Assembly (NCBI GenBank): GCA_963702205.1
Contig: OY969724.1
Location: 32,001 to 96,000, forward strand
Source: an uncultured candidate division Zixibacteria bacterium
Lineage (GTDB): Bacteria; Zixibacteria; MSB-5A5; GN15; PGXB01
Direction of reading: 5' to 3'
Length of the DNA: 64,000 nt
Of the stretch, positions 5,356-55,876 are shown one piece after another. The notes below the pieces were generated by a model. The model saw only the letters and a list, made by a program, of their open reading frames with translations, did no database searches and was not told the origin of the DNA. The translations under genes were made by a program, and so were the position numbers. The first letter of the stretch is position 1; each line of letters begins with the position of its first letter.

Positions 5356-5370
5356 TTTTTTTCATCCCCC

Positions 5371-5399: not shown

Positions 5400-5432
5400 C
5401 CTAAAAAAGAATATGCATAAAAGGCAAATCAT

Positions 5433-5777: not shown

Positions 5778-5839
5778 TTTTTTTTGGCATTTATAAATAG
5801 TCATATTGGAATATATGCATTTAATTAATGGAGATTGTT

Positions 5840-6073: not shown

Positions 6074-6087
6074 CAAAGGAGGATAAA

Positions 6088-6477: not shown

Positions 6478-6503
6478 CATTCATTCCTTCGGAGAATAAT
6501 TTA

Positions 6504-7208
6504 ATGCTGGATTCCTTTTTTATTACTGTCAACGGATGGATATCAAGTGGACCTTTACTTGCGGCCGTCGGCTGTTTTTTATGGGGAGTGATAAGTGTTC
6601 TGTTCAGCCCCTGCCATCTTGCGTCAATACCCCTTATTGTCGGCTATGTCGGGGGGCAGGAGGCGATGCTTACGCCGCGAAAGGCAGGTGTTTACTCTGT
6701 TTTATTTTCAACCGGGCTGTTTATTTCCATAGCCCTTATAGGGATCATCTGTGCCCTTCTGGGGCGGATGCTTGGAGATGTAGGTAATTACTGGCAGATC
6801 TTTATTGGACTTATTCTTATATGGATCGCCCTGGGAATGCTCGGAGTTGAAAAATGTACCGCGTCCGGCAGTCTGCTTTACAAACTGAATTTCAGAGGAT
6901 TTGCCGGTGCATTTGGGCTTGGTCTGGCATACGGCATTCTATCTGGTTCATGCACATTTGGATTTATTGCACCTGTTCTGGCAATCATCACCGTACAAAA
7001 GCAGATCGCATCAGGAATACTTTTTATATTGCTGTTTGCCGTTGGTCATTGCCTGCCTATCGTAGTGGCAGGCAGTTCAACGGCTGCCGTGAAAAGGATC
7101 ATGGAAAACAGCAGGTGGCAGGGAGCAGGTACCTGTTTTAGAAAAGGAGCGGGTGCTATTATCATTTTATTGGGGATCTATTTTATAGTTAATCCTTTTT
7201 TAAAATAA
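6504..7208 (+). CDS. CcdA/DsbD-type membrane electron transporter
   Basis: Hydrophobic multi-TM protein with SPCHL and GSCT Cys motifs. Confidence 0.85.
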   Translation: MLDSFFITVNGWISSGPLLAAVGCFLWGVISVLFSPCHLASIPLIVGYVGGQEAMLTPRKAGVYSVLFSTGLFISIALIGIICALLGRMLGDVGNYWQIFIGLILIWIALGMLGVEKCTASGSLLYKLNFRGFAGAFGLGLAYGILSGSCTFGFIAPVLAIITVQKQIASGILFILLFAVGHCLPIVVAGSSTAAVKRIMENSRWQGAGTCFRKGAGAIIILLGIYFIVNPFLK

Positions 7209-9478: not shown

Positions 9479-11924
9479 ATGGCATATAAACGATTGATGA
9501 TATTTTTTTTGTCTGTTTTTTTAACGCCGGCTTATATTAATGCCCAAGTCCCCTCTCAGGCAGAGAAGGATCAGAAGTATGAGGAAGCCAAACAGGACGC
9601 GATGGGGATTTGTCCACCTATCAACCTGCTGGACGAAAATGGAAATATTATCAATCCGTTGGAAAATCCCAACGTAAGCAAGCCTTACAGTCCTAAAATG
9701 ACCTGCGGAAAATGTCATGACTACGACAAGATAACACAGGGTTACCATTTTCAACAGGGTAAAGGTGCTAAGATGACTGAGGATTACGCGCAGGCCTATC
9801 CCTGGGCAAAAAGCCCCGGGCAATACGGGGGTAGATGGTGAAGTCCGGGACCTGTTTTCCGCCAGTTGGCAGGGAAAAAGAACTCATCACCCCAGGAGAT
9901 CGACCTTACATCTTACACCTTTACAGCCCAGTGCAGTGTCTGCCATACCGGAGGCGGCCCTGCAGAATACTGACCGGAACGGAAACCGTTATGATCAGTT
10001 TGCAGCAGACCCGAAAAACGGGATAATTCCAGGCGGGACAAACAACCTTGACGGCGATTATTTCGAGTCAAAGTGGGCTGAAAGCGGGGTCCTTGAGGCT
10101 GACTGTCTCATATGCCACCTTAAAAGCTACGACATGGAAAAAAGAAACGCCCAGGTTAAGGAATTCAATTTTCGCTGGGCCGCTACGGCGGGTGCCGGAT
10201 TTGGAAAAGTAGAAGGCAGTATCTTAAAAGGCGAAACACCGAAGGTCATATATAATCCTTCCATGTTCCAAGAAGGCGGCAAGGTGGTTCTTCCGGTTAT
10301 CAGGGAGGTTCAAAATGGAAACTGCCTTTTTTGTCATCACGGGTCCGACTGGAAGAAACGCGGCAGTTCCTACAGTCACAGGACAGATGTGCATATCCGG
10401 GCCGGGCTGCGTTGCATCGACTGCCATTTGACCGGCCGGCATGCGGAAGATCCCAGGATTTATGGAAGGGAAGAACACCAGATAGGCAAAGGCGATGACC
10501 CGGGAGATTTTGACCGTGATGACCTGGATAATACCATGCGCAGCTGTGAGGACTGTCATGCAAATGGTATTCTAAATGCACCTGTCCCGCAGCATAAGGG
10601 CTTCCCGCCGGTTCATTTTGAAAAGATCGCCTGCCAGACCTGTCATATACCATGGCGCCAGGTGAGGGCCGCTCTCGTGCAGGATTCCTCTGTTTTCAAC
10701 GCGAGCCCCCGAATTGAACCGCCAGGTAAAAGAATCTGGAATTTTTACGGGCCGGATATAACACCATGGAATTATTACGGATTTGAAATTGGTTATCCGG
10801 AAGGGCTACAGCCGTTCTTCAAGTACAGGCCGGCACTTGGAAAGTACAAGGACAAGATCTATCCCCTTAACCGTGTTTATACGCTATGGACAGGGATAAA
10901 AACAAAAGGAGAAAAAGGGATCAACCAGCCATTCATGAAAGATATTTTTATGATGTGGAAAAATCATTCAGAGCATCCGGACACGACCTACCCTGAGTTG
11001 AGTATTATCAGCGATGACAACCGTGACGGGTTTCCTGAAGTTAACAGGCCTGAGGAGATCAAATCTCTACTGTCCTCGGTCACCTCTATGCTCAAACAAA
11101 AAGGGGTATCCATGAAGAATAAGACAGTCGTATTTGTGGACGGGGATCGTTACACAGCCGACGGAAACAAATGGATAAGCCTTCCTAAAAAGCCATATGA
11201 ATATTCTCCTTACGGCTCGGTCTTCAAATATTCCCACGACATCACCCCTGCCCGTAATGCACTGGGTGCCAAAGGGTGCGCCGACTGTCATGCCCTCAAA
11301 TCCACTTTTTTCGAGCAGCCCGTCATGACACAGCCGTTTGATGAAAATGGCAAACCCACCTATCGACCTAATGCTGAACTTCTCGGATTTTCATCAACAG
11401 CGGTATTTGCAAGTGGCTTCAGGCAGGAGATTTTAAAACCGATCCTTTTTTTCAGTATTCTGGCCGGTATATTGCTATTACTTATCATGCTTGTATGCGG
11501 AGATTGGGTAATCGGGCTCTCAAAATCGAAACCTTTTCCTTGGACACCCACCCAACGCCTGATGCTTGGTATCCTGGGTGTGGGTCTTCTTGGACCGTCT
11601 ATTATTGTCATCTTTGAATCACTACTACCCAGTAATGTTATAGGAATACTGGAAAACATCCATCGGTGGGCGGGAGTCGGTCTTGTCATTGCTACCCTCT
11701 GGCTGATGTTAAAAACAAGGGGTAAAAACACCGATAGTCTTTTCTGGACAGGCATTTTTTTAGTGGCATTTATGACATCAACAGGGGTCTTCCTTTGGGT
11801 AAGCAGCTCTGAAAACATACGGCAGATCCTTTATACCCTGCATGATGCCGGTGCCATTTGCGCAGGTTTTATAGCTCTTGTATCAATTATTTACTTTTTT
11901 TTACATAACAGGGCAGCCAAATGA
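9479..11924 (+). CDS. Probable selenocysteine-containing, membrane-anchored octaheme c-type cytochrome (UGA 9839-9841; one extra base near 9971)
   Basis: Signal peptide; frame stays open after the TGA and includes CSVCH; 8 CxxCH in total; SECIS-like hairpin; C-terminal TM helices; selA in window. Confidence 0.8.
9855..9878 (+). promoter_or_regulatory. Candidate bacterial SECIS element
   Basis: TTTTCC-GCC-[AGTT]-GGC-AG-GGAAAA; GU-containing apical loop begins 22 nt after the UGA. Confidence 0.65.
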
Positions 11925-12028
11925 TATAGGCAAAAAAAATAGTTTTGCGACAGATAATAGGCGACTCTTTTTTTATCATAGTATATTGATATATAGATTA
12001 TTACGTCTTCAATGGAGAAACTAGTCAA

Positions 12029-13141
12029 ATGAAAACGCTTGAACAAGACAAGGGCTCCTTCACAGCTCTCAACAAAGAATCGACAAGCCGGACAACGATC
12101 GTGAGCCATGCCGGCGTGACCGCCAAATACATTGCGCTCATCGTGCTGCTGCTGGCGGCGTGGTGGGTTATTTACCGGAACCTTCCGGCTTTTGCAGAAC
12201 ACGCAACGCGCATCATGTCAACACTGATGGGCTTTCAGGTCGACGGAAGACTGGGCGGCGTCGTTTCGTTTTTCATCTTCGAAGCGCCCAAAGTGCTGAT
12301 GCTGCTGGTCCTGGTGGTCTTCGGAGTTGGCATCGTTCGATCCTTTTTCACTCCCGAACGGACAAGAAACATTCTCGCCGGCCGACGTGAATCAATCGGC
12401 AACGTACTGGCGTCGATCCTCGGCATCGTGACCCCCTTCTGCTCCTGTTCAGCGGTGCCGCTTTTTCTGGGATTTGTGACTACGGGTGTTCCTCTTGGAG
12501 TGACATTCTCCTTCCTTATTGCTGCACCCATGGTCAACGAAGTGGCGCTGGTGCTTCTCTATGGGCTATTCGGCTGGGAGGTGGCGGCCATCTACCTGGG
12601 TATGGGTGTGTTGATCGCTATGGTCGCTGGATGGGTCATCGGCCGGCTGCACATGGAGCGGCATCTCGAAGAGTGGGTATTCCAGATCCAGGCGGGGCAG
12701 GCAGACCTGCCTGAAGGAAAGCAGAATTGGGCGGACCGGATGCGCTATGGATGGGATGCGGTTCGCGAAATCGTGGGAAAGGTCTGGATATATGTGATAT
12801 TGGGCATCGCTGTTGGTGCAGGCATCCACGGCTACGTGCCCGAAGGTGTTATGGCTTCGTTCATGGGAAAGTCCGCATGGTGGTCGGTGCCCCTGTCCGT
12901 GGTGATCGGCATTCCCATGTACTCCAACGCCGCTGGAATCATTCCCATCGTGCACGCCCTGATTGAGAAGGGGGCGGCGCTTGGCACGGTACTGGCGTTC
13001 ATGATGTCCGTCATCGCACTGTCGTTTCCCGAGATGGTCATACTGCGCAAGGTCCTCAAGCCGCGGTTGATCGCCACTTTTATTGGAGTGGTCGGAGCGG
13101 GCATCCTTTTGGTTGGATATCTGTTCAATTTTATTATGTAG
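12029..13141 (+). CDS. ArsP/DUF318-family permease
   Basis: TPFCSCS, APMVNE, GIPMYSN, ALSFPE motifs; lies in ars cluster. Confidence 0.88.
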   Translation: MKTLEQDKGSFTALNKESTSRTTIVSHAGVTAKYIALIVLLLAAWWVIYRNLPAFAEHATRIMSTLMGFQVDGRLGGVVSFFIFEAPKVLMLLVLVVFGVGIVRSFFTPERTRNILAGRRESIGNVLASILGIVTPFCSCSAVPLFLGFVTTGVPLGVTFSFLIAAPMVNEVALVLLYGLFGWEVAAIYLGMGVLIAMVAGWVIGRLHMERHLEEWVFQIQAGQADLPEGKQNWADRMRYGWDAVREIVGKVWIYVILGIAVGAGIHGYVPEGVMASFMGKSAWWSVPLSVVIGIPMYSNAAGIIPIVHALIEKGAALGTVLAFMMSVIALSFPEMVILRKVLKPRLIATFIGVVGAGILLVGYLFNFIM

Positions 13142-13227
13142 AGGAACCGGATGCCATGACACAAAAAACACAGGGCAGAAAATTTCAATAGAATATTCAA
13201 TAGAAACTCATTATTAAACAGGATACC

Positions 13228-13887
13228 TTGGAAACTGATTTAATCATTGAAATAGAACAGGTCTTGAAACCATTTTTTACTCATGCGCGATTTAAGACAC
13301 AAGAGTTTTTATGGCATGAGGGTGATCCGGGCAGTAAAATGATCTCGATAATCAAGGGAAAGGTCAGAATTTACCGTTCTCTCCCGGATGGAAAGCAGGC
13401 ATCAATATTCTTATTTGGTCCGGGAGAAACATTTGGTTTTTTACCTTTGATTGACAGATCACCATATCCAGCCAGTGCAGAAGTCATAGAAGATCTTGAA
13501 GCTCTGGTCATGACAAGGGAAAAACTGTATGAAGTGATGAGGCAGTATCCTGATGTTGCCGTGTTTTTACTTACACAACTGGCCAAAAAACTGCGCGGAG
13601 CGTTTGACCAGATTGAAATGCTTTCTACCCGGGGTATCCTGCCCCGTGTGGCTGCGGCTATTATCTCACTCACCAGTTCGTCCGATAGTAAAGTGCAAAC
13701 TGAAATAATAACACTTCCTGTCTCTTCACGTGAATATGCAGGTCTTTTAGGGCTTACGCCCGAAAGTTTTTCAAGGGGAATCACGAAACTTTCGGAAATG
13801 GGTATCATTCACAAGATAAAGGGAAATACATTCCAGGTACTTGACTATAACAGGCTGCTCAGCGAATCCAGACCGGAAAATCAGTAA
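13228..13887 (+). CDS. Crp/Fnr-family transcriptional regulator
   Basis: cNMP-binding-like domain (GPGETFG) and HTH GLTPESFSR; TTG start; no N-terminal Cys cluster. Confidence 0.9.
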   Translation: METDLIIEIEQVLKPFFTHARFKTQEFLWHEGDPGSKMISIIKGKVRIYRSLPDGKQASIFLFGPGETFGFLPLIDRSPYPASAEVIEDLEALVMTREKLYEVMRQYPDVAVFLLTQLAKKLRGAFDQIEMLSTRGILPRVAAAIISLTSSSDSKVQTEIITLPVSSREYAGLLGLTPESFSRGITKLSEMGIIHKIKGNTFQVLDYNRLLSESRPENQ

Positions 13888-14158: not shown

Positions 14159-14767
14159 ATGGAAAATTTTAAAGAAATACTTGAAACGGGTATTAAATTT
14201 CACGGTCACAGGTGCCCGGCCATGCCAATGGGGCTCAAGGCAGGGCTCGCCGCTATGAAGATCCTTGGCGTGGAACGCGCAAAAGACAAGGAACTCTCAG
14301 TGATATCCGAAACAGGTAAAGGGCATGCAGCAGGCTGCTTTCTGGACGGCATCATGACAGCTACCGGATGCACATATGGCAAGTCGAATATCGAAAAACG
14401 TTATTACAACAAGATGGCCTTTACTCTAATTGATAATAAAACCGGTCGTGCAGTTCGGGTTTCCCTGAAACCCGACTTTTTTGAAATGGCACTCGCATCC
14501 CCCTTTGTACAACTGAGAAAGGCCGGCACTCCGCCGCAGGACATTGATCCCGAAATAGCCGATCCGCTCATTAACAGGGTCCTGGGGCTGGAAGACTCTC
14601 AGTTCCTCGATATCGGAGATATACACCCTGTTGATGTTAAAAAAGGGAAGGGAGTTTTCGATGCAAAAAGGTGTGAAGCCTGCGGCGAACTTACCTTTAT
14701 AAACAAGCTGCGTGTAAAGGATGACGGGTCCCTCCTGTGCATCCCATGCTCGGGCTATGACGAGTAA
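14159..14767 (+). CDS. FmdE-family metal-binding protein
   Basis: FHGHRCP, CFLDG, GCTYGK and C-terminal zinc finger CEAC...CIPC. Confidence 0.88.
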
Positions 14768-14801
14768 TCAATCTTAATGAAACAGAAGGGGGGAACAGTT
14801 A

Positions 14802-15611
14802 ATGCCTATAGGAACCGAACAGATTATATTATTGTGCGCCGTCTTTTTCATCGTGTCAGTCGTATTTATGATGTTCGGCCAGGGAGGCGGTGCAGTCTAT
14901 GTGCCCATGCTCCTGGCCTTCGGGCTTCCTCTTTATACGTGTGCCGCTACAAGCCAGATGCTGATTATAGTAGCCACCGTCTCCGCCCTTCTTGTTTTCC
15001 ATAAGGCCGGATTCGTTGACTGGACCCTTGCCCTTATCGTGGAGCCGCCAACCAACCTTGGAGCCTTTTTCGGGGGATACCTTTCGCCTTATTTTCCTGT
15101 GACATTTTCCAAGCTTGCATTTGCCTGTATTATCCTTATCGGAGCTTACTTCATGATAAAGCCCATAGGAAACAGGAGGATGGGACCGGAAGTTAAAAAG
15201 GACAGATGGTTTTATATTAATCGAACCACTGGAAATGAATCATATACATTAAATCTTTTTTCCATAATACCGCTGATGATCCTTGCAGGCTTTGTGTCGG
15301 GTATGCTGGGTGTGGGTGGTGGCCTCATAAAGGTGCCTGTAATGGTACTCCTGGTGGGTGTCCCAATGAAGATAGCCGTAGGTTCATCAAGCCTGATGAT
15401 TGGTATTACAGCGATTACAGGCCTTCTAGGTCATGTAATAGCCGGGCATTTTGACCCGAAACTGGCCATGATCCTCGGAGGCGCAGTCCTGGTCGGCTCT
15501 CAGATTGGTGCAAGGCTGGGTGTCAGAATAGACAAGAAAGGTCATAAAAAATATTTTGGTATCCTGTTAATCTTTATCGCCTGCTGGATGGGCTATATGG
15601 CGTTTAAATAA
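14802..15611 (+). CDS. TauE/SafE-family (TSUP) exporter
   Basis: Duplicated G(Q/V)GGG..VP motifs, hydrophobic, GSQIGAR. Confidence 0.88.
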   Translation: MPIGTEQIILLCAVFFIVSVVFMMFGQGGGAVYVPMLLAFGLPLYTCAATSQMLIIVATVSALLVFHKAGFVDWTLALIVEPPTNLGAFFGGYLSPYFPVTFSKLAFACIILIGAYFMIKPIGNRRMGPEVKKDRWFYINRTTGNESYTLNLFSIIPLMILAGFVSGMLGVGGGLIKVPVMVLLVGVPMKIAVGSSSLMIGITAITGLLGHVIAGHFDPKLAMILGGAVLVGSQIGARLGVRIDKKGHKKYFGILLIFIACWMGYMAFK

Positions 15612-15721
15612 AACACATATGGCAGAGTATGAACAAAACAGAAAGCTGATCAGGATAAACAGCTTAATCTGCGATCCGTGACAGGTATTTCCACTGCCAA
15701 TAACCCTCAAGGAGTTTTGAG

Positions 15722-18059: not shown

Positions 18060-21000
18060 ATGTTTGATTTTTTCCATAAGCGTCCCTACCTGCTATATAG
18101 CCTGATCGCCGGATTTTTCGTGCTGGGAGTTTACGGCCTGCTGGTGATGCCAAAGAATCTTTTTCCGGACAGCGACCGGCCGACGATCATCGTAGTGACT
18201 CAGGTCCCCGGCGCGACACCCGACGTGGTGGCTGCCACGGTTTCCAAGCCCATCGAGGAGGAAGTCTCCACCCTGTCGCAGATCCGACAGGTCAGTTCAG
18301 TTAATATTGCCGGCATGTCTATAGTCACGGCCGAGTTTGAGTACATCAAGGGGCTGGATCCGGCTGCTGTTGATGTCAACAACGCTATTAACAAAATGCG
18401 CGGCAAACTGCCCCGGGACGTCAATCCATCCATCTACACGGCCGGCTCACACATTCTGCCGGTAGATGTGTTCGCGCTGTCACCGGCCGGTGGTGGTCTT
18501 ACCCTGGGCGACGTACGCAAGATCGCAGAAAGCGATATCAAACCCGCTCTTCTGCGAAACCCTCAAGTTGGCAATGTGGAGATCTTCGGTGGATACCAAA
18601 GCGCCATCAGTATAAATGTCGATCCGTTCAGGGCAAAAGCAGCAGGATTGAGTCTGGATAAGATCTCAACGACGGTGCGCGCCCTGGACCGGGACGCCCC
18701 ATCGGATTCAGCAAGAATATGGATTCTTTTTATACGATCACCATTTATGGAGAAAAAGCAAGTGTCGAAGAACTAAGCATGCTGCCAGTGGCTCCCAACG
18801 TTCGCCTTGGCGATATAGCTGATATCAGGTGGGAGCACCAGACGCGCTTTTCCGGTTACTACGGCGACGGGAAGGCTGCCATCGCTATAGCGATCCAGCG
18901 TGCACCGGGCGGATCGGTACTGGACACAAGCAATGCCTGCCGCGCGGTTGTCGAAAATCTCAAACCACGCTATCCCAACATCCGCTTCGCACTCGCCGAC
19001 ACCCAGCGCACCCTGATCAAAACAGCCAACATCAATATGCTTGACGCGCTACGGGACGCCATTATTTTCACCCTTATTGTCATCCTCCTTTTTTTGGGCA
19101 ATCTGCGGGCTGTCGCCGCAGCCCTGATCTCTATTCCCATGGTGTTTTTTACTACTCTGGCCATCATCTGGATGACCGGCGGTGAGTTGAACATAGTCAT
19201 CTACACGGCCATCATCCTCGCCTTGGGAATGCTTGTGGATGACGCGGTCGTCGTCCTGGAAAACATCGAGCGCCATCTGGTGGATTTGAAGCAGGATCTG
19301 AATACGGCCATTATCTCCGGCACCAAGGAAGTGGTAGCGCCGGTTTTCGCCGGCACAGTGGCAACCGTGGCCATCATGTTCCCTTTCCTGTTTGCCGGTG
19401 ATTTTCCCCAGCAAATCTTCCGGCCTCTGATCTCCACGCTGATCATAGCCCTGGTGGTTTCCTATTTTCTTTCCATTACCTTCATTCCCGCCATCTCCTT
19501 TTTCCTTTACCGCAAGGGTGTTTCCAAGACTCGCTTCGAGCAGCTACTCGAGTATCTCTACGAGAAAAGCTTCGGACGCCTGGTAGGACCTTATCTGGCC
19601 ATCCTGCGGTTTTCCGCCAGGGGGCGCTCCGGCTGGCGGCGCATCCTGATGACCGTCGCTGTTGTCGCACTGCTGGCCTTCAGCCTCAAAAACATCATGC
19701 CGGTAATCGGCCGTGACCTGATGCCCCCCATGGATACAGGCATCATCAAGGCCCATGTCAAGTTTTCCGCCAACGAGCCGGTGGACGTAGCAGAAAAGCG
19801 TCTCAAACCCTTTATCGAATGGCTTCACCGACAGCCGGAAGTGGTCATGAGTTCAGTGAGTTACGGTTCCGAGCCAGGCGTGCTTTCCCTGGGATCGGGG
19901 TCACTGCCCGCAGAAGCGATGATGACGATTAATTGCGTGGATCGCTTCCACCGCAAAAAAAGTATATGGCAGATTGAGGATGAACTTCGTTCGCGTCTTT
20001 CGGAATTGCGAAACGTCAAGGCTGCCGACGTATATGACTTCGGCGCCACCCCACTGTCCAGTATCAAAGCCCCCGTCGACGTGCGCCTGATGGCTGAAGA
20101 CTACCATGTATTGCCGCAAGCGGCGCAAAAAGCCGCGAAGGCTCTCGGCTCGGTCAAGGGGTTGACTTCTGTAAACACCAGCTGGGACAATGATTTCACT
20201 GAGGCGCGGTTGAATGTCGACACCAACCGTGCCCTGGCATATGGCATGACCCCGGTGCAGATCGCCGCCCAGTTACCTCTGGCAGGTCTTCCTGTAGCAG
20301 TCAGCGCTAATATGGTCACTATGCAGAATCAGTTTGTGCGAATTTATTTTAACCGACCATTTGACGGCAACCCGGAACAGTTGCGCCTGATCCCGATACA
20401 GACGCCCAAGGGACCTGTGCCGCTTTCTGCCCTGGCGACAATAGAATACGGACTGACAGCCAACAAGATCGAGCGTAACCAGATGCTCTATTCCCTGGAC
20501 GTGTCGGGATATCGCTCCCGGCGTGCCATTTCCACCCTGACTGAAGACACCCAGTCAGCCCTGAAAAAGGCCGGCATCAAAGGTGTGAAAATCAGCCAGG
20601 AAGGTGATATCAAGCAGATGAAGGACTCTTTCACGCGGATGATCAAGTCTATCGGCATTGGCGTAATACTTCTGCTCATGGCGCTGGTGGCCATTTATCA
20701 GTCAGTGCGTATGGCTATCGTCATGGTCCTGGTGCTCCCGCTTGCAATGATCGGGGCTTCCTGGGGCATGCTTATCTTCAATAAACCAAGCTGCATGCCC
20801 AGCCTGGTAGGTATTTTGCTGCTCTTTGGCATCATCATCAAGAATTCGATTCTGCTGATCGATTTTTATCAGGAGTTTAGAAAAAAAGAAGAATCCCCCT
20901 TTGATGCGGCCCTGGAGAGTGTGAGGGTGCGATTCCGGCCGGTGTTCATGACCGCTTTTGGCACTATCGCCGGCATGATTCCCATCGCTTTCGAATGGGC

Positions 21001-21145
21001 GGTCGGGCTCGAAAGGCTCTCACCCCTGGCCGATGTGGCAGTGGGCGGGCTCCTGGTCGGAACGGTGCTGACATTGATATACATCCCAATGTTCGCCTAC
21101 AGCGTGGAAGGGAAAAAATCGATTCAAACCGGCAATTTAAAATGA
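18060..21145 (+). CDS. RND (AcrB/CusA-type) efflux permease, frameshifted near 18695-18700
   Basis: Two ORFs join as ...DAP-IGFSKNMDS with one missing C in a C run; LVDDAVVVLENI and RFRPVFMT motifs. Confidence 0.88.
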
Positions 21146-22551: not shown

Positions 22552-22644
22552 AATATAGAAGACCATCCATGTGAAACTGAGAAGACCCGTACAAAATATT
22601 GAGCATAAAAAAAGATGCCTCCCAAAAGGAGATATGCGGATACT

Positions 22645-24894
22645 TTATCTATTGAAAGATACTGCTTCCACCACACCTGTTGCAACCAGATTTACAACCT
22701 CTTCCACAGTAACACCATATTGGCGAAGATGAACTGGCAACCTTGTACCCATAAGTATAGGGCCCACCGATACGGCTTTACCAATCTGCTGAATCAGATC
22801 AAGTGCCAGGTTCCCGGACTGCAGATCCGGGAAAATAAGGATATTGGCGTTTTCAACAAGTTCGGAAAAGGGAAAGTTTTTTGACCTTAATTTTTCGTCA
22901 ACAGCAACAGCCAGTTGTACTTCCCCGTCTATAATTAATTCGGGAGCACGATCCTTTGCTATCTCCGTGGCCCTTCGCACTTTGTTTGCGAGTGGATGTT
23001 CAACACTGCCGAAGTTGGAAAATGAAAGCATGGCGACACGAGGTTCAAGCCCCAGAGAGCTGACCCTGCTTGCTGTAAGTAATGCAATCTCTGCCAGATC
23101 TTCTGCACTGGGGTCTATATTAACGGCGCAGTCCGCAAGAAAATAGATGTTTTTAGGCAGCAGTATCATATGGTGACTTGAAATCCTTTTTATTTCCGGA
23201 GCAGGACCGATTATTTCCAGAATTGTTCGAAACGACCTGGCATAATGAGTGGATACCCCCGCGAACAGCATGTCTATATCCCCGGTATGAAGCATGAGAG
23301 ATGCGAAATAATCCCGCTCTCGAAGACGTTTTACGGCCTCCGGCCGCATCACACCTCTACGCTGCCCCATCTTGAAATACTCGTCCACATAAAATTCAAA
23401 GCGGGGACTTTTAAGCGGGTCAATTATATTTATACCTTCCAGGTCGAGATCGAGACTTCCGATAACCCTCAGGACCTCTTCACGATTTCCAAGCAGGGTT
23501 GGTTTTGCTATCCCCTCATCCAGTAAAATGGAACATGCACGCAAAATGGTCTCATCTGTCCCGTCTGAAAAAACTATGCTGAGGTTTTCCTGCCTTGCCT
23601 TCATGATTATTTTCCGCATGGTTTCCCGGCCTGTTCCTATTCGGACGGACAATCTTTCGCGATGTGATCGGTTATCTATTGAAATACGGGCAACACCCTC
23701 CTTGATAGCCTGTTGTGCAACAGCCGAGGACTCATATACCAGGATTCTCGGGTCAATAGGTTTTGGAAGAAGATATTCAGGTCCGAAGCTGAAATGCTCA
23801 TCACCATAAGCCCGTTCCACTTCCTCAACCACCTCTTCGCGGGCCAGTTCGGCCAGCGCCCTGGCTGCCGCTATCATCATTCCCTCAGTAATGCGCGTGG
23901 CCTGGACATCCAGCGCTCCCCTGAAAATATAAGGGAAGCTCAGGGTATCCAGAACAGCATTAGGATACAGCCCCACGCCTGTAGCGACAATTATATCTTT
24001 CCTGCTTGATTTGGCTGATTCATAATCGATTTCAGGATATGGAGTGGATAAAGCGAAAACTATTGGAAAGGAATTCATCGACCTGACCATCTCGGGATTG
24101 ATTGTACCGGAAACCGACGCTCCCAGAAACACGTCGGCCCCCTTCAGTCCTTCGGAAAGAGTCCGTGCCGAATGTTTCCAGGCAAAGGCCTTTTTATATT
24201 CAGGCAAATCCTTTCGATCCGGATGCAGTAAACCTTTTCTGTCATACACAAGAAGGTTTTCACGTTGAATCCCCAGGCGTAAAAACAACCTTGCGCACCC
24301 TATCCCCAATGTTCCGATGCCGCATATAACCACACGTACGTCTTCGATCTTTTTATCAACAAGGTCAAGCGCGTTCAGGAGAGCGGCAGAGGCTACAACC
24401 GCGGAACTGTAAAGATTTTCATGAAAAACCGGTATTTTCATCCGTTCACTGAGACGGTCATAAATATGCAAGCCTTCCCGCACACTTATATCTTTAATGT
24501 TTATCCCGCCGAAGGTCGGTTCCAGCATCAGGACCGTATCAATAAACTTCTCCGGATCCGTTGTGTTCAATTCAAGATCAAAGACATCTATATCCGCCAG
24601 TTGCTTGAATATAACCGCTATACCCTCCTGCATCGGTTTTGCTGCCTCCGGTCCCACGTTGCCCAGGCCGGGCACTGAGGAACCGTTTGTCAAAACACCC
24701 ACCAGATTGCCCTTTGATGTATAGTTGAAAATCTTTGACGGTTCCTCTGCGATGAGTTTTGAAGGAAATGTAGCTCCGGGAAGATAGGCCAGCCTCATTT
24801 CCCTGGGGGTCATACAGGGTTTGGAACTGTGTATTTCAATCTTCCCCGGACGTTCGGACGAGTGATACGTCAAGGAATCATTTTCTCTTATCAT
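22645..24894 (-). CDS. MaeB-like protein (malic enzyme plus PTA domain) with degenerate catalytic site
   Basis: Colinear with MaeB throughout, but EGIA replaces EGK, IKDI replaces LEDI and HENLYSS replaces HDDQHGT. Confidence 0.85.
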   Translation of the reverse strand: MIRENDSLTYHSSERPGKIEIHSSKPCMTPREMRLAYLPGATFPSKLIAEEPSKIFNYTSKGNLVGVLTNGSSVPGLGNVGPEAAKPMQEGIAVIFKQLADIDVFDLELNTTDPEKFIDTVLMLEPTFGGINIKDISVREGLHIYDRLSERMKIPVFHENLYSSAVVASAALLNALDLVDKKIEDVRVVICGIGTLGIGCARLFLRLGIQRENLLVYDRKGLLHPDRKDLPEYKKAFAWKHSARTLSEGLKGADVFLGASVSGTINPEMVRSMNSFPIVFALSTPYPEIDYESAKSSRKDIIVATGVGLYPNAVLDTLSFPYIFRGALDVQATRITEGMMIAAARALAELAREEVVEEVERAYGDEHFSFGPEYLLPKPIDPRILVYESSAVAQQAIKEGVARISIDNRSHRERLSVRIGTGRETMRKIIMKARQENLSIVFSDGTDETILRACSILLDEGIAKPTLLGNREEVLRVIGSLDLDLEGINIIDPLKSPRFEFYVDEYFKMGQRRGVMRPEAVKRLRERDYFASLMLHTGDIDMLFAGVSTHYARSFRTILEIIGPAPEIKRISSHHMILLPKNIYFLADCAVNIDPSAEDLAEIALLTASRVSSLGLEPRVAMLSFSNFGSVEHPLANKVRRATEIAKDRAPELIIDGEVQLAVAVDEKLRSKNFPFSELVENANILIFPDLQSGNLALDLIQQIGKAVSVGPILMGTRLPVHLRQYGVTVEEVVNLVATGVVEAVSFNR

Positions 24895-24934
24895 GCAGTA
24901 ACCTCCAAAATAATTTTTTTAGAAAGGTATAATA

Positions 24935-27900
24935 TTAAAGCGTTAACGGATAATGTTTTATCGTCTCCTGAAGCGTCCTCATAAAACTTGTCACCGGACG
25001 GCATTGTAATATCCAGAGTTTATTATTCTCAAAGCAGAATTCAATGTCCAGGGGATACCCGTAGGCTATTTCAAGTCTGCCTGCTATTCTCACCAGATTA
25101 CAAATATCTGCATAACTGAGCGCGGGCTGCAGGCGCCTGTGATAGGGCGTCGAGGAATAAATTACGCCTCTGCCTTCCCATTTATTAAATACTGCCTGCC
25201 TCTTCTTTTCTCTTGTCAGGTAGCGAAAATTAATCGGTAAATCAGGTGTCTCTAGTACTTTCTTGTCTTTTTCCACAAATATCCGGTCACCGGGAACCCT
25301 TCCCATAACAATTCCAGTGCCCAGCCCGGGCCCTGCGTTGATGACCATTTCCTTGAGATTCCCTTCCGCAATGTTTATCGTCTGAAGTACACCTGAGACC
25401 CGGGGAGAAATAATGCGCTGGATTATTACGCCTCCCTCCGGCATTTCATAAACAGACCCCGTGAGCAATCTGTGATATAATGCACGTTCACCCCAGAAGC
25501 CGCCCCACACTCTTTTCAGATATTTTAAAACATCCCCTTCCCCGTGTATAAAAAGAAAAGTGTCGAACAGGCCGGCATTCGTTGTAATCTCTGTGTCCTC
25601 ATCTCCGGCTGAAGATCGTATTGATACATAATCATTTAAATCCCTGTCAGACATCCCTTCACCGGCAATATTTCCAAGGCGTTTGTAAGCAGTAACAACC
25701 TCCTGAATCAGTTCATCTGGAAGAATAGCATCTTCCCATATCTGCAAAATTTTCCGGGCTTTTTGCATATGATCAATATCACGGCGTACTAGCACCTCAT
25801 TTAATGCTCCCCTCAGAGTTCCTGCGGAAGACATCCCAACGATGTTTTTCGTTGCCCTGTCAAGTGGCAGATCCATCACCCGGGTTAAGGCATGGTTGGT
25901 AACAGCAAACCAGGGGGGAACCAGTCCATCTCCTTCCAGCCGCTCTACTTCGGACAGGTTGGCAGCCTTCCAGCCTATCAGGCCGGAAAGTTCAATACCA
26001 CCGTCTTCGGGCCCCAGGATGGAACATTTTTCAAGCTGATTCAGTGAGATTTCATCATTTAATATAATTTTTTCTCTTATCTCGTTGATCGGATTTTTCA
26101 TCACTGTTGAAGTTCCAAGAACAGAATCCAGTCTTTCCAACTGCAAGATTAAATGCCTGACATGATATTTCATCAGCGGTGACAGATTTCCTTCAATATC
26201 CTGAGACAGCAGTTCCAGTTTCTGCTCAAGATCTTTTCTGAAGTGCGTATCCATATCCTCACTTCCGGACAGGTCCACCCTGATATCTTCGAAACCGCAA
26301 CTGCGTAAAGATTCATATGCCTCATTGACTGCGCGCCGAATCCGCAGTATCTTAAGCCGCATATAAAGTATCTCATAAATATTAACATAAGAACGGAGCT
26401 GTTTTTTGAGTTCCTCCAGCAGTGCCCGGTGCCTGAGATTGAGGCTCATATAAGCATCCAGCAGATGGCCCCTGGCAGCTTCCCCCAGGTCAGGATTTTT
26501 CAAGATAATGGAAATCAGGCTTGCCTTCTCGTTTCGGCTTCCACTGTTAAATGAAAGATATTCACTCATAAGCAGTTCGTACACTATATGACATGCCAGA
26601 AAAGGATCAGAAAGCCTTGCAAGCTGTTTATCAAGGCGATGAAGCGCCCGAAGCCTTCTGCCCCTGAGGTTCAGTATAAACTGATTGCCCTTTGACGCCA
26701 TAAGACTTTCGGTAGTTTCACAAAAATGCGCGAGAGTGTCATGGAACTTGATGGCATCCCTGTCCTGGCCCAGAATCGATAAAAAACCTTTCTCCGAGTC
26801 CAGGACAACAAGGTCTCCTTCCTTTATATACTGATTATTCCTGGTGGTGATAGACCTTGCCGATATTTTATAGCCCAGATATTCTTTACTCTCTTCATGA
26901 AACTCGGAGCAGTAGCTGCGAAGGTTCATTTTACCGTCAATAGACTGTTCCCATTTTCCGTTTATAATCATGGAAGGCTTTTTGAACTGAAGAGCAGTAA
27001 GGGCCGAATGACTCAATATCCCTCCACTCGTGGTAACTATACCCGAACAGTTGTATATCAGGGCATTATCATCCAGGCTGACAACCGGCGTGACAAGAAT
27101 TTTGCCTTGAAAATCTTCAGGCGGTCTGTTTTCCGAGTTAAAGAGTATCCTTCCAACAACCCGTCCCGGCGAAACCTTTACCCCTTTTATAATTCTTTCT
27201 CCCTTAAAAGGTACATGTTCTCTCTTCCTGTTAATCTGCCTGAAACTTTCTCCAACAGATTTTACCTTTTCAGGAGAGTCTTCAGTTACCTCCATTCCGG
27301 GCATCAGACAGTTGCCTTCCCGGAGCCATTTTGACAGTTTATTCGCATCCAGGCTAAAATTTGACTTCCAAGGCTTGCCGGGGTCACTTCTCTTCCTGTA
27401 AAGAATCCGGCCATCTGTAAAAAATGAAAAACGTATAATACCCTCTTCATCTCTCAGCACATAAATTCCTATTATCCTGTCAAAAACAGGTATGGAGGTA
27501 TATTGTATCCTGTATCCGTTGAGGATGCCTGAATTTATAAAATATGTATTCTGATCCAGGGGCCTTATCAGGCCGGAAAGTGAAAAAGAAGACGCCATGA
27601 GGCCCTCCGGGTCGGAAAGTATCTCGGCAAAACGTTCCGCTTCCCACTCATTATGAAATAAATCAGAAGGGGCCTGTGATAAACCCCGGGGCCCTTCTAC
27701 AATACCGCCGGATGAAATGGCTTCCCTGAGGGGTTTGAAAATTAAATTTTCGATCTGAAGCTGGCCAATGTCATTTCCCGATGACTGGCTGGAAAAACGA
27801 TGGATATCAAGGCCGAGCTTCCTTAAAGATGTTTTCAGGCCGGTCAAAAGATCTTTCGGCAACGGAGAAGCGATCCGGTCGACATATGGCTCCTTTCCGT

Positions 27901-30007
27901 CCCATATAACCTCCTGATCTCCCGTGGGGCCATGTATCCGGCTGACAAGGATCCCCTGGCGGTCGCCTGTAAGGCACTGCTCCAGTGGAAGCACTCCCCA
28001 TTTTTTGAAGAATCCTGCCCATGCCTCTGTAACCAGGCCGCGCGACTCTTTACCAAGATTCAGGGAGCTGATAACCCAGTCTATATCCATGAAATAAGGA
28101 ACCAGATTAAACAGCATCTCAGCTTTTTCATACAGGTTTTTTGTATCCATGGCCCTGTTTTTATCATAGCGGACACAGATATGAGTAAGGTTAACCTGGA
28201 CATCATATCCGAGGTATTCGAAAAAATATTTAATGGCATCAAGAGACAGGTTGGGATGCTTATCGATCTCCGTTTTACTCACTCCATAATATTCTAGATC
28301 AATCATTCCGCCGTTCAAGGGGTGGGAAAAATTAATTCTGAGGAAAGCAGGGTGATTCCTGAAGGATATGTAGTAATTAATTTCATTCCCGTAACAGAAT
28401 ATCTTCATTCCGGGAAAATCCTTTTTCCCCCGGAGCATCTGCCGTGCATAGGCATCGGCTGCGATCCTGACCGGGTAGGGTATGTGTGTCGGGTCAGGGC
28501 TCTCTTTTTCCGGCTCAAAGTTAATATAACTTATACATGATAAGGCATTAAGGACCTTCTTTTCTGATGCAGTGAGCAGGGAGACAGTTCTGTTCATAGC
28601 ACAACTCGAGTTTATCAGGCGAAAACCCAGCCGGAGCCCCTTTTGATGGAGATAACGTTTCAGCCCGTGCAGTGTTTGAACCTTGCCGAGTTTGGGAGGA
28701 TCCTCGTACATCTGGACAAGCCTGGACAGCTCAAGGGTTGGTCTATTCCTTATTTTTCCCTTCTCTACCTCGGAAAGGATCTGATTTTTAAGTTTACTGT
28801 ATACATCAGGCAATATAGCACTTTCATCCGAATATGATGAAAAAAGCGCCATATAATCGGTAACTATACTGTCCATTGCCGCAAGCAGCCGATTCACTTT
28901 TTCGGGTGTAAGCTGTGCAGTCTCTGTAAAATCAGCTATAATTCTGGAATGGGCAAGATTGTAGGATCGGAAAAGAATAACAGGGTCCTTATCCTTTGCC
29001 CTTTGCTGCTTTTCATCCTGGACACCGCCGTGACATATAAAAAGATAAATATCACTGCCACGTCTGGCATCCTTCCGGGTATCAAACAGCGTTGCCTCGG
29101 ACGGGGAAACCATCAGCGGGAAGGAATCTCCAATTTTGAGGCTGATAAGTCTTTGGGACTCAATACCATAATTGATGCACTGCCATCCAATTCGTGAAGT
29201 AATGTCCTTCAATATGCTCCTGCCGCATGATGACTCGACTTTATTTAGCTGGTTCAGCGCGGGCGAAGACTCTCCGTGCGATGGAGTGATTTGAAGAAGA
29301 TCCATGTATGAGGCCCTGGTGAATAACAGATAAGGCGCAAAAAACCGGAATGCATCTTCTCCCAGAACTTCAAGTGCCACATCCTCCCTGACCGGTTCTC
29401 CAGGTAAGTCCAAAACCCGGGCTGCCAGCCTGCGTAATTTGATATCCTTGTGATGCAGGAATATCCCCGGCGCCCCACCCCTGGCATCAGCAGAGAAATC
29501 TCCTGGTAAACAACTCACTATTTTTGCCACAGCATTAAGATATTCCGCTGTGTTCAAGATGGTTTCATCATTTTCAATTTTATCGGCGAAAAATTCCAAT
29601 ACGTCGGAACCAACCGGCAAGGAGCCTGATTGTGCAAGAGAGGCTGCGAGATCAGCCGCCTTCAGAGCCAATTTTGCCTCCCTTACTGATAAGAGCCCCT
29701 GGAGAAAAGGCCAGGGATTTTTTATATTTATGGTTATATTATAAAAAAGATCAAATAAAGGAGTGACGATATCACCCATTTTCTTCGGTAATAAAGGGAT
29801 TAAAATTTTCAGGTGATCGAGCTCTGCCGAATCGGGCGGAGCTTCAATTAGATTCAGGAGCAGGGAACAGGACGTCCGCACACGCTCAGGGCTCCCCATA
29901 ACAATATTAAATTCTGCAGTTATATCCCTGATAATAGCTGATACTGCTATATTTTTATCTGCATTTGAATAACGCTCTTCATGGCTTTCGGACTTTGATC
30001 GGTTCAT
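24935..30007 (-). CDS. 1690-aa dikinase-like protein (phospho-His domain followed by C-terminal PPDK-type ATP-grasp)
   Basis: GGILSHS His motif; GWKAANL, IRSSA..ED, AGLFDT, DIEF, ILQCRP motifs; ~930-aa unassigned N-terminus. Confidence 0.8.
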   Translation of the reverse strand: MNRSKSESHEERYSNADKNIAVSAIIRDITAEFNIVMGSPERVRTSCSLLLNLIEAPPDSAELDHLKILIPLLPKKMGDIVTPLFDLFYNITINIKNPWPFLQGLLSVREAKLALKAADLAASLAQSGSLPVGSDVLEFFADKIENDETILNTAEYLNAVAKIVSCLPGDFSADARGGAPGIFLHHKDIKLRRLAARVLDLPGEPVREDVALEVLGEDAFRFFAPYLLFTRASYMDLLQITPSHGESSPALNQLNKVESSCGRSILKDITSRIGWQCINYGIESQRLISLKIGDSFPLMVSPSEATLFDTRKDARRGSDIYLFICHGGVQDEKQQRAKDKDPVILFRSYNLAHSRIIADFTETAQLTPEKVNRLLAAMDSIVTDYMALFSSYSDESAILPDVYSKLKNQILSEVEKGKIRNRPTLELSRLVQMYEDPPKLGKVQTLHGLKRYLHQKGLRLGFRLINSSCAMNRTVSLLTASEKKVLNALSCISYINFEPEKESPDPTHIPYPVRIAADAYARQMLRGKKDFPGMKIFCYGNEINYYISFRNHPAFLRINFSHPLNGGMIDLEYYGVSKTEIDKHPNLSLDAIKYFFEYLGYDVQVNLTHICVRYDKNRAMDTKNLYEKAEMLFNLVPYFMDIDWVISSLNLGKESRGLVTEAWAGFFKKWGVLPLEQCLTGDRQGILVSRIHGPTGDQEVIWDGKEPYVDRIASPLPKDLLTGLKTSLRKLGLDIHRFSSQSSGNDIGQLQIENLIFKPLREAISSGGIVEGPRGLSQAPSDLFHNEWEAERFAEILSDPEGLMASSFSLSGLIRPLDQNTYFINSGILNGYRIQYTSIPVFDRIIGIYVLRDEEGIIRFSFFTDGRILYRKRSDPGKPWKSNFSLDANKLSKWLREGNCLMPGMEVTEDSPEKVKSVGESFRQINRKREHVPFKGERIIKGVKVSPGRVVGRILFNSENRPPEDFQGKILVTPVVSLDDNALIYNCSGIVTTSGGILSHSALTALQFKKPSMIINGKWEQSIDGKMNLRSYCSEFHEESKEYLGYKISARSITTRNNQYIKEGDLVVLDSEKGFLSILGQDRDAIKFHDTLAHFCETTESLMASKGNQFILNLRGRRLRALHRLDKQLARLSDPFLACHIVYELLMSEYLSFNSGSRNEKASLISIILKNPDLGEAARGHLLDAYMSLNLRHRALLEELKKQLRSYVNIYEILYMRLKILRIRRAVNEAYESLRSCGFEDIRVDLSGSEDMDTHFRKDLEQKLELLSQDIEGNLSPLMKYHVRHLILQLERLDSVLGTSTVMKNPINEIREKIILNDEISLNQLEKCSILGPEDGGIELSGLIGWKAANLSEVERLEGDGLVPPWFAVTNHALTRVMDLPLDRATKNIVGMSSAGTLRGALNEVLVRRDIDHMQKARKILQIWEDAILPDELIQEVVTAYKRLGNIAGEGMSDRDLNDYVSIRSSAGDEDTEITTNAGLFDTFLFIHGEGDVLKYLKRVWGGFWGERALYHRLLTGSVYEMPEGGVIIQRIISPRVSGVLQTINIAEGNLKEMVINAGPGLGTGIVMGRVPGDRIFVEKDKKVLETPDLPINFRYLTREKKRQAVFNKWEGRGVIYSSTPYHRRLQPALSYADICNLVRIAGRLEIAYGYPLDIEFCFENNKLWILQCRPVTSFMRTLQETIKHYPLTL

Positions 30008-30218: not shown

Positions 30219-31491
30219 ATGCAGGATAACAGTAATAAAAATAAAAGAGAACAGGGACGGAAGTATTTCAAGGCCGATTCTTCAGGCAGCATAATAATCC
30301 CGGCGGAAACCGCCACAGGACTGGGCATTAATTCCGGAGACCATATCAGATATACCCAAAAGGGAAGCGTTTTAACTCTTAGACTTCCAATGCGACTGGC
30401 AAAGCTGTACGTGGAGGTTACAAATCAGTGCAACCTTAACTGCCGCACATGCATAAGGCATGTATGGGATGAACGGCCCGGTATGATGTCCGAAAAGGTT
30501 TTTGAATCCATAATGGAAGGCTTATCCTCTTTCCCTGATCTTCCTGAAAAGATCTTTTTCGGGGGCTTTGGCGAACCCCTTTCGCACCCCGGAATAATCC
30601 GGATGATCTCCCGCGTTAAAGCCCTGGGCATGTCAGCAGAGCTGATTACCAACGGTACGCTTCTTAAAAGAGAAGATGATTGAACGCCTGATCGAATCCG
30701 GCCTCGATCGGATGTGGATATCCCTTGATGGATCGACCCCTGAAAGTTTTTCCGATATCCGCATGGGCGCACAGCTGCCGAACATCATGGAAAACCTCAG
30801 GCTTTTAAATAAATTGAACAGTGTGGGCGGCCGCGGGTTCTCACAACATATGGAAATCGGCATTGCCTTTGTTGCGATGAAGCGCAATATCAGGGAACTG
30901 CCCGCAGTAATAGATATCGGTAAAAATATCGGTGCAAACCGGGTCCTCGTCACCAACGTGCTTCCCTATACCGAAGCCATGGTTGACGAGGCCATGTATT
31001 ATCGGTCTGTAAACAGAAGAAACTTTGATCTGGATCTGCCGTTGATGGACATGGATGACATTTCATTAGACTCGATCCGAAGGGCGGCGGACACTATAAA
31101 TATGACCATCCCCTTTATCCCTTCGGAAGCACTCAGAAATAAATGTCCTTTTATTGAAGACGGGGCAGGGGCTATCGGCTGGAATGGTGACATCAGCCCA
31201 TGCCTCCCTCTGCTGCATAATCATGAGGGTTTTCTTGGCTTCCTGACCTATGGAACCCGTCAATCGAAAAAATGGGCAATAGGAAACGTGCTTGAACAGG
31301 ATCTCTTTAAGCTTTGGAATACCCAGGAACACAAAGCCTTTCGTGAGCGTGTAATGGATTTTGATTTCTCCCCGTGTATTACATGCGGAGGGTGTGATCT
31401 GTCAGAGAAGAATGAGGAAGACTGCATAGGTAACAGGTACCCGACCTGCGGAGCATGCCTCTGGGCTCAGGGAATAATAAGGTGTCCATAA
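30219..31491 (+). CDS. Radical SAM/SPASM maturase with N-terminal AbrB-like domain, frameshifted near 30666
   Basis: CNLNCRTC, GGFGEP, SPASM Cys motifs (CITCGGC...CGAC...CP); extra A in an A run splits the gene. Confidence 0.85.
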
Positions 31492-55860: not shown

Positions 55861-55876
55861 GCTCAAGGAGCAAAAA

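Follow-up and report, generated by a model that had tools for sequence, protein, structure and literature searches.

What does a protein do that keeps the whole framework of an allosteric malic enzyme and has exchanged the residues that carry out its chemistry? The question is raised by a gene in a 64,000 nucleotide stretch of DNA (the window) from an uncultured candidate division Zixibacteria bacterium (GenBank assembly GCA_963702205.1, contig OY969724.1, positions 32,001 to 96,000 of the forward strand). This gene encodes a full-length relative of the malic enzyme MaeB, here called the variant, and it lies directly behind the gene for a giant dikinase of 1690 amino acids, which has domains of the kind found in phosphoenolpyruvate (PEP) synthase and PPDK. 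We find that the catalytic residues of MaeB have been lost, that this loss is conserved throughout a clade of MaeB relatives, and that the variant and dikinase genes are strictly linked and inherited together. Because the variant always sits just behind the dikinase, the two probably form one two-protein unit, and one that is probably undescribed; a search of the full text of Creative Commons PMC papers and of bioRxiv found no paper on the clade or on the pair. If so, a whole allosteric enzyme, with its sensor and catalytic domains, would have been preserved in full while losing its chemistry and becoming coupled to a second enzyme, and the pair would mark an unassigned ATP-consuming step, probably near the pyruvate/malate/acyl-CoA node.

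A malic enzyme framework without its catalytic residues

The variant gene and its parts are located in the window as follows, where PTA stands for phosphotransacetylase, dN/dS for the ratio of non-synonymous to synonymous substitution rates, and L017 and L018 for the loci holding the two nearest relatives.

22645..24894, minus strand: MaeB-variant gene, 749 aa (P0001), frame intact without internal stop, dN/dS 0.04-0.07 against L017/L018
23650..24894, minus strand: malic-enzyme-like domain, residues 1-415 (Pfam PF00390, 41 bits; PF03949, 66 bits)
22681..23619, minus strand: PTA-like domain, residues 426-738 (PF01515, PTA_PTB, 309 bits)
24895..24934, minus strand: 40-nt intergenic spacer with a Shine-Dalgarno sequence, GGAGG, at 24902-24906
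22618..22632, minus strand: terminator-like hairpin and T-run just 3' of the variant stop, weak evidence because the region's count of such sites is not above that of shuffles

The first-pass annotation of this DNA had described an intact frame of 749 aa with a dikinase gene 40 bp upstream. On the minus strand the frame indeed has no internal stop, the dikinase open reading frame (ORF) ends 40 nt before the variant start codon, the GGAGG lies 7 nt upstream of the ATG, and a scan for terminator-like sites listed none within the spacer. The layout of a hybrid malic enzyme is complete, with PF00390, PF03949 and PF01515 found by Pfam across residues 18-738, and phmmer aligns the variant end to end with the PDB chains of Bdellovibrio MaeB (BbMaeB; 9kru/6zng, 667 bits) and E. 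coli MaeB (8jzo, 607 bits), with which it shares three-domain architecture, length and about 47% identity over the full length. The malic domains match weakly, at the 41 and 66 bits given above, where a canonical MaeB beside the locus of a relative scores 105 and 87 bits. Against the NCBIfam model NF009501 (cut-off 1178 bits) the variants reach 666-705 bits, and two canonical MaeBs of other lineages, at 760-790 bits, are likewise below.

Residue correspondences were counted along the phmmer alignments to the solved MaeBs, and the codons were re-read from the window sequence. The substitutions that had been proposed relative to the E. coli sequence are all seen in these alignments: Lys94 is Ile92 in the variant (PMQEGIAV); Glu136 is Lys134 (GINIKDI), with Asp137 kept as Asp135; HDDQHGT has become HENLYSS, in which Asp161-Asp162 are Glu159-Asn160; and GRSDYPNQVNN has become GVGLYPNAVLD, in which Ala313, Leu315 and Asp316 replace Gln, Asn and Asn. 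The canonical ANP reads STP, with Thr284 for Asn. In eukaryotic malic enzymes the Glu, the Asp and the second Asp of HDDQ are ligands of the divalent metal. These positions are Lys134, Asp135 and Asn160 in the variant, an incomplete ligand set.

What is kept of the malic domain comprises Tyr37, the GxGxxG motif at 192-197, Asp218 and Arg227. The change from GAGAA to GIGTL had been counted among the losses; it should not be, because GIGTLG still fits GxGxxG, and Gly192 and Gly197 are present in every one of the 120 clade members described below. Thus the dinucleotide-binding motif (G192-I-G-T-L-G197) and the acidic residue after β-2 (D218) are both in place. According to the published account of BbMaeB, the catalytic residues are Y52, K107, E149 and D174, the nucleotide motif is 207-GAGASA-212, the nicotinamide is contacted by N300 and V330, and NADP binding is governed by D233, R242 and K250 (Harding 2021, PMC7902834; paper number = chain number + 4). 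In the variant the catalytic set maps to Y37, I92, K134 and E159, so that of it the Tyr alone is kept, and the 207-212 motif, N300, V330, D233, R242 and K250 map to G192-G197, T284, V314, D218, R227 and K234, respectively.

The variant is therefore like MaeB in its swapped-helix Tyr, its hook Tyr, its GxGxxG motif, Asp218 and Arg227, and in a PTA-like domain that lacks PTA catalytic residues, whereas it differs in having Met, Val or Ile for Lys, Lys for Glu, Glu-Asn for Asp-Asp, ATP for the ANP motif and NAVLD for NQVNN. The description of these changes as a selective loss of active-site residues captures part of this: the catalytic residues have been replaced, but the site has also been rebuilt with new invariant residues and its nucleotide motif has been kept. 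Judged by its residues, the variant cannot work by either of the known mechanisms, that of malic enzymes or that of PTA, and it almost certainly no longer decarboxylates malate.

A separate and slowly evolving clade

Are these substitutions peculiar to one sequence? From a collection of 5.8 billion proteins we took the 120 best matches, scoring the 8000 candidates that share most words with the query, so that the clade has at least 120 members. These closest homologues are 65-100% identical to P0001 and have the substitutions in common. Columns were counted in 120 variants (P0001 and P0003-P0121) and in 20 canonical representatives picked from 26 canonical full-length ones.

Position 37: Y in 120 of 120 variants; canonical Y in 20/20
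Position 92: M 49, V 36, I 33 and L 2 of 120 variants; canonical K in 20/20
Position 134: K 107, S 8, R 2, L 1 and others 2 of 120 variants; canonical E in 20/20
Position 159: E 107 and Q 13 of 120 variants; canonical D in 20/20
Position 160: N 119 and D 1 of 120 variants; canonical D in 20/20
Position 284: T 104 and others 16 of 120 variants; canonical N in 20/20
Position 313: A in 116 of 120 variants; canonical Q in 20/20
Position 316: D in 120 of 120 variants; canonical N in 20/20

The retention of Tyr37 claimed from the single sequence thus extends to the whole set, and the hook residue Tyr363, Asp218 and Arg227 are likewise conserved across the clade. In a quick tree inferred with IQ-TREE from 41 sequences selected by hand, namely 24 variants and 17 others, the variants all fall on one side of a branch with an SH-aLRT support of 100 and a stem of 0.59, and their inner branches are short. 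In comparisons with the two nearest relatives, L017 and L018, the variant has a dN/dS of 0.04-0.07 and the dikinase one of 0.13-0.16, values that are rough because dS is 1.0-2.0; purifying selection is strong. Alignment with the MaeB family, which had been suggested as a check, therefore gives a monophyletic, slowly evolving clade defined by the substitutions. It was also predicted that annotation pipelines would mislabel such proteins, and this is what has happened, as clade members are named 'NADP-dependent malic enzyme', 'malate dehydrogenase (oxaloacetate-decarboxylating)(NADP+)' or 'phosphate acyltransferase' by their sources. Thousands of such genes are filed in databases as NADP-malic enzyme or phosphate acyltransferase, so that the metabolism reconstructed for bacteria of sediment and soil includes a reaction that these proteins almost certainly do not perform.

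These data bear directly on the simplest alternative, that the gene encodes an ordinary malic enzyme or is a decaying pseudogene. The complete MaeB architecture and the identity of about 47% to canonical MaeBs would suit the former, but the general base Lys, the metal-ligand Glu and the metal-ligand Asp are gone clade-wide; and a pseudogene would hardly have an intact frame, the low dN/dS given above and clade members at least 65% identical across phyla. We consider this alternative very improbable, and as far as sequence can tell both of its forms are excluded.

Loss of the catalytic residues is also seen outside the clade. When 1.84 billion cluster representatives were scanned, 32 full-length proteins (700-800 aa) among the best 150 matches listed were inspected: 3 have the variant signature, 26 have PVMEGK, the Glu and HDDQHGT, 1 is without its N-terminal part and 2 are otherwise degenerate (P0265 and P0270). 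The last two are MaeB-like proteins in which catalytic residues were lost differently (e.g., PVAEGR/IHGGCCGL and PLLEGR/FDSERWGQ), and P0270 is a long-branch neighbour of the variant clade in the quick tree. MaeB may have been disabled more than once in evolution.

Strict linkage to a giant dikinase

Starting from the variant and taking one genome per species, we obtained 15 genome loci, one of them cut by a contig end (L022) and one fragmented by frame breaks (L031). In 15/15 a full-length relative of the dikinase (P0002; 36-70% identity) ends just before the variant. The record titles name Desulfatiglandales, Calditrichaceae, Ignavibacterium, Bacteroidota, Pseudomonadota, Gemmatimonadetes, Acidobacteria/Acidobacteriota, Planctomycetaceae and Eisenbacteria, and the labels of the carriers span about ten phyla. 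Starting instead from the dikinase N-terminus, we kept 80 metagenome loci, of which 56 hold the dikinase 3' end. In 53 of these the sequence continues for at least 200 nt downstream, and all 53 have the variant there, in the same orientation and 9-452 nt past the last aligned dikinase residue; the remaining 3 have at most 111 nt downstream; a further locus in which the C-terminus of the dikinase is divergent (L099) also has the variant. In 8/14 genome loci the two ORFs, going by their coordinates, share 4 nt, with the dikinase stop running into the variant start. Neither gene was found without the other in the 15 genome loci and the 53 metagenome loci that could be checked, so the proposed link between the clade and the giant dikinase stands in both search directions. 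Over 44 loci the pairwise distances of the two proteins correlate (r = 0.87, reached by 0/999 Mantel permutations), and the variant is the slower of the two, with a mean distance of 0.31 against 0.53. The two genes are inseparable and are inherited as a unit. In this the variant differs from MaeB itself: it forms a clade apart, coexists with the canonical enzyme and has a dikinase gene coupled to it throughout.

Could the two proteins share an operon and act independently, forming no complex? It is true that operon partners need not touch. However, the linkage holds over many phyla in all loci of both searches despite variable other neighbours, starts and stops overlap in more than half of the genome loci compared, and neither gene was met alone, and we regard independent action as improbable.

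A search for fused forms, joining both proteins, gave 5 long matches, one of which, P0392 (2410 aa, from a metagenome contig), joins the dikinase to the variant. We rejected it as a Rosetta-stone fusion, since its last ~170 dikinase residues are replaced by an Arg/Pro-rich sequence and a frame error is probable.

A dikinase with a large N-terminal region and no detected barrel

The partner gene has the following parts.

24935..30007, minus strand: giant dikinase gene, 1690 aa (P0002)
27218..30007, minus strand: N-terminal 930 residues of the dikinase, without family match
26798..27109, minus strand: phosphohistidine swivel domain, residues 967-1070 (PF00391)
24965..25981, minus strand: C-terminal ATP-grasp domain (PPDK_N), residues 1343-1681 (PF01326, 178 bits; PEP synthases in the PDB, E 1e-30)

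The carrier histidine is His1000 (codon 27008-27010), within T-S-G-G-I-L-S-H. It and the T-x-G-G-x-L-S-H motif are invariant, as are many ATP-grasp residues, in alignments of 14 and of 60 homologues, and the dikinase looks catalytically competent from its residues. It resembles PEP synthase and PPDK in two domains, the PPDK_N domain of the ATP-grasp kind and the swivelling His domain, which bears T-x-G-G-x-x-S-H. It differs from these in that their order, which runs from the ATP-grasp domain to the His domain and the PEP/pyruvate barrel, is reversed, with the N-terminal region followed by the His domain and then the ATP-grasp domain, in that Pfam detected no PEP/pyruvate barrel (PEP-utilizers_C), and in that there are 930 unrelated N-terminal residues and a further stretch of ~270 residues without Pfam match. 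All scores of the dikinase against NCBIfam equivalogs are far below the cut-offs, and its homologues are named 'PEP/pyruvate-binding domain-containing', 'pyruvate, water dikinase' or 'hypothetical'.

The N-terminal region is itself well conserved. Its core, at about 350-700, is the most conserved block and is rich in His, Arg, Lys, Asp and Trp, and the invariant residues include H447-G-L-K-R-Y-L-H-Q455, H552, R557, H584, R613, D615, K616 and D643-W644. Used as a query, the 930 residues retrieved 322 proteins, and nearly all of the best 120 listed are 1600-1730 aa long. Pfam at E up to 10 gave noise, with no CBM45 or other credible domain; when a profile of 61 dikinase N-termini was searched against PDB sequences, the lowest E was 0.14, with nothing below 0.1; compared by hhalign with two PPS-like proteins encoded in the same genome, this profile reached probabilities of 4% and 0.2%; and the ESM Atlas gave no usable match for residues 1-930.

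A comparable layout is that of the potato α-glucan water dikinase (GWD) GWD1, which has two CBM45 domains, a helical central domain, a His992 domain and an ATP domain (PMC13553574). Both proteins exceed 1400 residues and run from an acceptor region to a His domain and an ATP domain (PMC13553574), the acceptor region of the dikinase being putative. They differ in that the dikinase N-terminus has neither CBM45 nor any other Pfam domain and no sequence match to the front half of GWD1 or to solved chains, and in that the literature consulted records no MaeB-like partner for GWD1.

A different precedent is mycobacterial VadK (Rv1127c), which is reported to be derived from PPDK, to autophosphorylate on a His and to bind metabolic enzymes (PMC13400623). 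As described there, it is a dikinase relative that has departed from PEP/pyruvate chemistry and acts with enzymes of central metabolism (PMC13400623); it differs in size from our dikinase and serves as a precedent only, being likened by description and not by sequence. It invites the reading that the barrel-less dikinase acts in the manner of VadK, as a regulatory kinase of which the variant is a protein target or effector. Together with the precedent itself (PMC13400623), the strict gene pairing and the clade-specific gains of Ser, Thr and Tyr (S163, T284, Y217, Y291 and T336) would fit this. Against it, VadK is far smaller, no phosphosite is known, and a conserved N-terminus of 930 residues is hard to explain if the neighbour is the sole substrate, which makes a kinase-target role a poor prospect in our view.

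The PTA-like half and the acyl-CoA site

The PTA-like domain had been said to keep its motifs, and all four (DCAVN, SFSNFGS, DGEVQ and GPILMG) are present in the translation. With its PTA_PTB fold and its SFSNFGS and DGE-Q motifs the variant resembles the Pta of M. thermophila and P. gingivalis, but where these have the Asp, Ser and Arg of the D-L-S-R-G loop it has Leu, Gln and Tyr. In full, its catalytic loop reads H-L-R-Q-Y-G-V-T-V-E-E against N-D-L-S-R-G-C-S-A-E-D in true PTA; the phosphotransacetylase encoded by a separate pta gene of the same genome reads ...NDLSRGCSAEDIV, including NDLSRGCSAED. In P. gingivalis Pta, activity was abolished or sharply lower in D309, S311, R312 and D318 mutants, and S311 and R312 are equivalent to S309 and R310 of the M. 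thermophila enzyme, as reported in PMC6461089. The catalytic D, S, R and D so defined are L723, Q725, Y726 and E732 in the variant. Gln725 is found in 119/120 and Tyr726 in 118/120 clade members, giving the loop a Q-Y-G signature. Like true MaeB, then, the variant is by its sequence not a phosphotransacetylase, and its loop has a fixed sequence of its own.

Is the ligand site of the regulatory domain retained? In MaeB the acetyl-CoA site comprises R475 and R482 in the E. coli protein, and site 1 comprises R531, K534, R577 and Q679 in BbMaeB, as given in PMC12704298. The two E. coli residues so named are not kept, being Asn470 and Val477 in the variant. The BbMaeB residues correspond to positions 510, 513, 556 and 660, a mapping that assumes that the numbering in PMC12704298 is that of chain 9kru and in which all four residue identities agree. 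Within the clade, Arg510 is found in 111/120, Arg513 in 115/120 and Arg556 in 113/120 members, and Gln660 is at least 90% conserved; residues of the Bdellovibrio-type site are thus present in most clade members. In the window protein itself Arg513, Arg556 and Gln660 match site 1, and position 510 is Gly.

Gly510 (codon 23365-23367) is common to the window protein and 5 of its closest relatives. As the position matches R531 of BbMaeB site 1, the acetyl-CoA ligand site may be altered or lost in this sub-lineage.

What might the pair do?

The reading that we prefer, tentatively and at somewhat less than an even chance, is that the variant is a MaeB-derived, non-malic ligand-sensing or scaffold subunit and the obligate partner of the dikinase. 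On this proposal the dikinase would take the β-phosphate of ATP onto His1000 and then pass it to an acceptor, with the N-terminal region as the putative acceptor region. The variant would retain those elements by which MaeB oligomerises and relays allosteric signals (hook Tyr363, the linker and the PTA core). It would also have kept the fold that binds dinucleotides and, across most of the clade, an acyl-CoA site with residues of the Bdellovibrio type, and as an exapted subunit it would report the occupancy of NADP(H)-like and acyl-CoA-like ligands to the dikinase. Such a role would parallel the service of the PTA hexamer to the malic domain in true MaeB. We favour a sensor or scaffold because the MaeB framework, the dinucleotide site and, for the most part, the acyl-CoA site are kept. 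The first-pass annotation had already suggested a pseudo-enzyme or repurposed enzyme working with the upstream dikinase; the clade and the linkage support this, and the physical complex itself, retained ligand binding and the direction of control are inferred.

Several points weigh against a sensor or scaffold. Binding of the variant to the dikinase is putative; the correlation of their distances is expected for any two co-inherited genes, and therefore says no more than that the two are passed on together; and the sole fused form found, P0392, looks like a frameshift artefact. The window copy has Gly510 where most clade members have the acyl-CoA-site Arg, and the genes flanking the pair vary between loci and point to no pathway. 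The old malate pocket has not simply decayed: it has gained residues that are fixed, or almost fixed, in the clade (Lys134, Asn160, Leu161, Ser163, Tyr217 and Asp316), and a conserved, rebuilt pocket would be explained by a new specific ligand or reaction no less well than by a passive sensor.

This leads to the main rival of the sensor proposal, that the variant is a neofunctionalised catalytic partner whose rebuilt, metal-free malic pocket binds the acceptor or the phosphorylated product of the dikinase, or performs a second step, its substrate site standing in for the missing PEP/pyruvate barrel. We hold this to be possible, if on balance unlikely. It would account for a dikinase without PEP-utilizers_C and for the conservation of the pocket changes (K134 in 107/120, N160 in 119/120, A313 in 116/120, and D316 and Y217 each in 120/120), and the tautomerisation Tyr (Tyr37) is universal in the clade. 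Lys134 replaces the Mg ligand Glu, the lining of the pocket is more hydrophobic and Asp316 is invariant. Clade-specific (type-II) changes were counted at positions where conservation reaches 90% or more among the variants and 70% or more in the canonical set, with a different residue in each; there are 31, all of them inside the malic domain (residues 30-384). The slower evolution of the variant relative to the dikinase is also in keeping with a catalytic role, as are neighbours at the pyruvate/oxaloacetate node in three loci, namely oxaloacetate decarboxylase subunits in L020, a canonical MaeB in L022 and a 2-oxoacid:ferredoxin oxidoreductase in L023. These hints from neighbouring genes are, however, few and inconsistent, and the conserved N-terminus of the dikinase, rich in invariant His, Arg, Lys and Asp, sits at the place of the GWD acceptor domain; because it has this large conserved region of its own, the dikinase may need no outside acceptor site. 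In its most explicit form, which we also hold to be on balance unlikely, the catalytic proposal describes a new two-protein enzyme of anaerobic sediment bacteria, in which the dikinase would charge His1000 from ATP and the phosphate would go to a substrate held in, or converted by, the metal-free ex-malic site, with Lys134 at the place of the Mg ligand and Tyr37 still present. Were phosphate in fact delivered to the rebuilt malic site, a former enzyme of central metabolism would now serve as the acceptor module for a new phosphorylation powered by ATP.

Distribution and genomic context

A canonical maeB elsewhere in the genome, for which the first-pass annotation had proposed to look, lies at contig position 1934531-1936766 with all canonical motifs, and canonical MaeB (PVMEGK, GINLEDI, FHDDQHGT and PNQVNN) is present in 5/5 other carrier genomes, hence in 6/6 counting the source genome. 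Compared with the intact gene of a genome of the same genus, the source copy has one extra base, which splits it. In the window, single-base frame splits are seen in an AcrB-type pump gene and a radical SAM-SPASM gene (18060-21145 and 30219-31491), the latter of which is intact at 441-461 aa in L017 and L018. Because these other genes are split likewise, the split genes, canonical maeB included, are likely to be assembly errors in a single-contig genome. Both genes of the pair are intact despite the frame splits elsewhere.

The pair is rare. It is absent from 60 relatives of the same genus, family or order, in which the best matches of the variant are canonical MaeBs (45-51% identity) and the only matches of the dikinase are ATP-grasp parts of other proteins. 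The dikinase N-terminus occurs in 2/285 genomes of the source phylum and in 5/401 sampled genomes of the phylum of the L026 genome. A search of sequencing runs listed no RNA run, and DNA runs with shares of at most 0.29.

Among 40 flanking ORFs of the window and 7 other loci there is no third conserved gene; the high-GC loci L024 and L026-L029, in which ORF calling is unreliable, were left out of this comparison. The divergent radical SAM-SPASM gene beside the pair is common only to the window, L017 and L018 among the loci compared. Elsewhere the neighbours include the oxaloacetate decarboxylase α and β subunits (10409-13397) and G6PD in L020; the canonical MaeB (4637-6931) of L022, convergent and right after the variant; an FGGY kinase and the 2-oxoacid:ferredoxin oxidoreductase in L023; and, in L025, a GH116 glycosidase (14-2785) whose end meets the start of the dikinase. 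These neighbours hint at sugar or pyruvate/oxaloacetate metabolism, inconsistently between loci. A reading of the pair as a defence system was dropped because PADLOC matched neither protein.

Synteny of the window with L017 and L018, which come from metagenome-assembled genomes labelled Desulfatiglandales, extends beyond the pair to TauE-like and radical SAM genes, in blocks at 14477-15624 and 30273-31490 that are 71-80% identical in nucleotide sequence. Between the TauE-like gene and the pair the window has an RND efflux operon and an alginate-export-like porin, whereas L017 and L018 have TonB-receptor, DUF4198 and tetrapyrrole-methylase genes.

At the far end of the window, a tyrosine recombinase gene (54282-55232, minus strand; PF00589 and PF13495) faces away from a run of low GC content (0.34-0.36). 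This run holds at least 14 small plus-strand ORFs, 13 of the 14 scanned being without Pfam match. Imperfect repeats that end in ...CGTTA lie between the ORFs, in 7 copies spaced by 311-925 nt, and a unit of 300 nt is duplicated exactly. The stretch 54282-64000 looks like a chromosomal integron with its cassette array.

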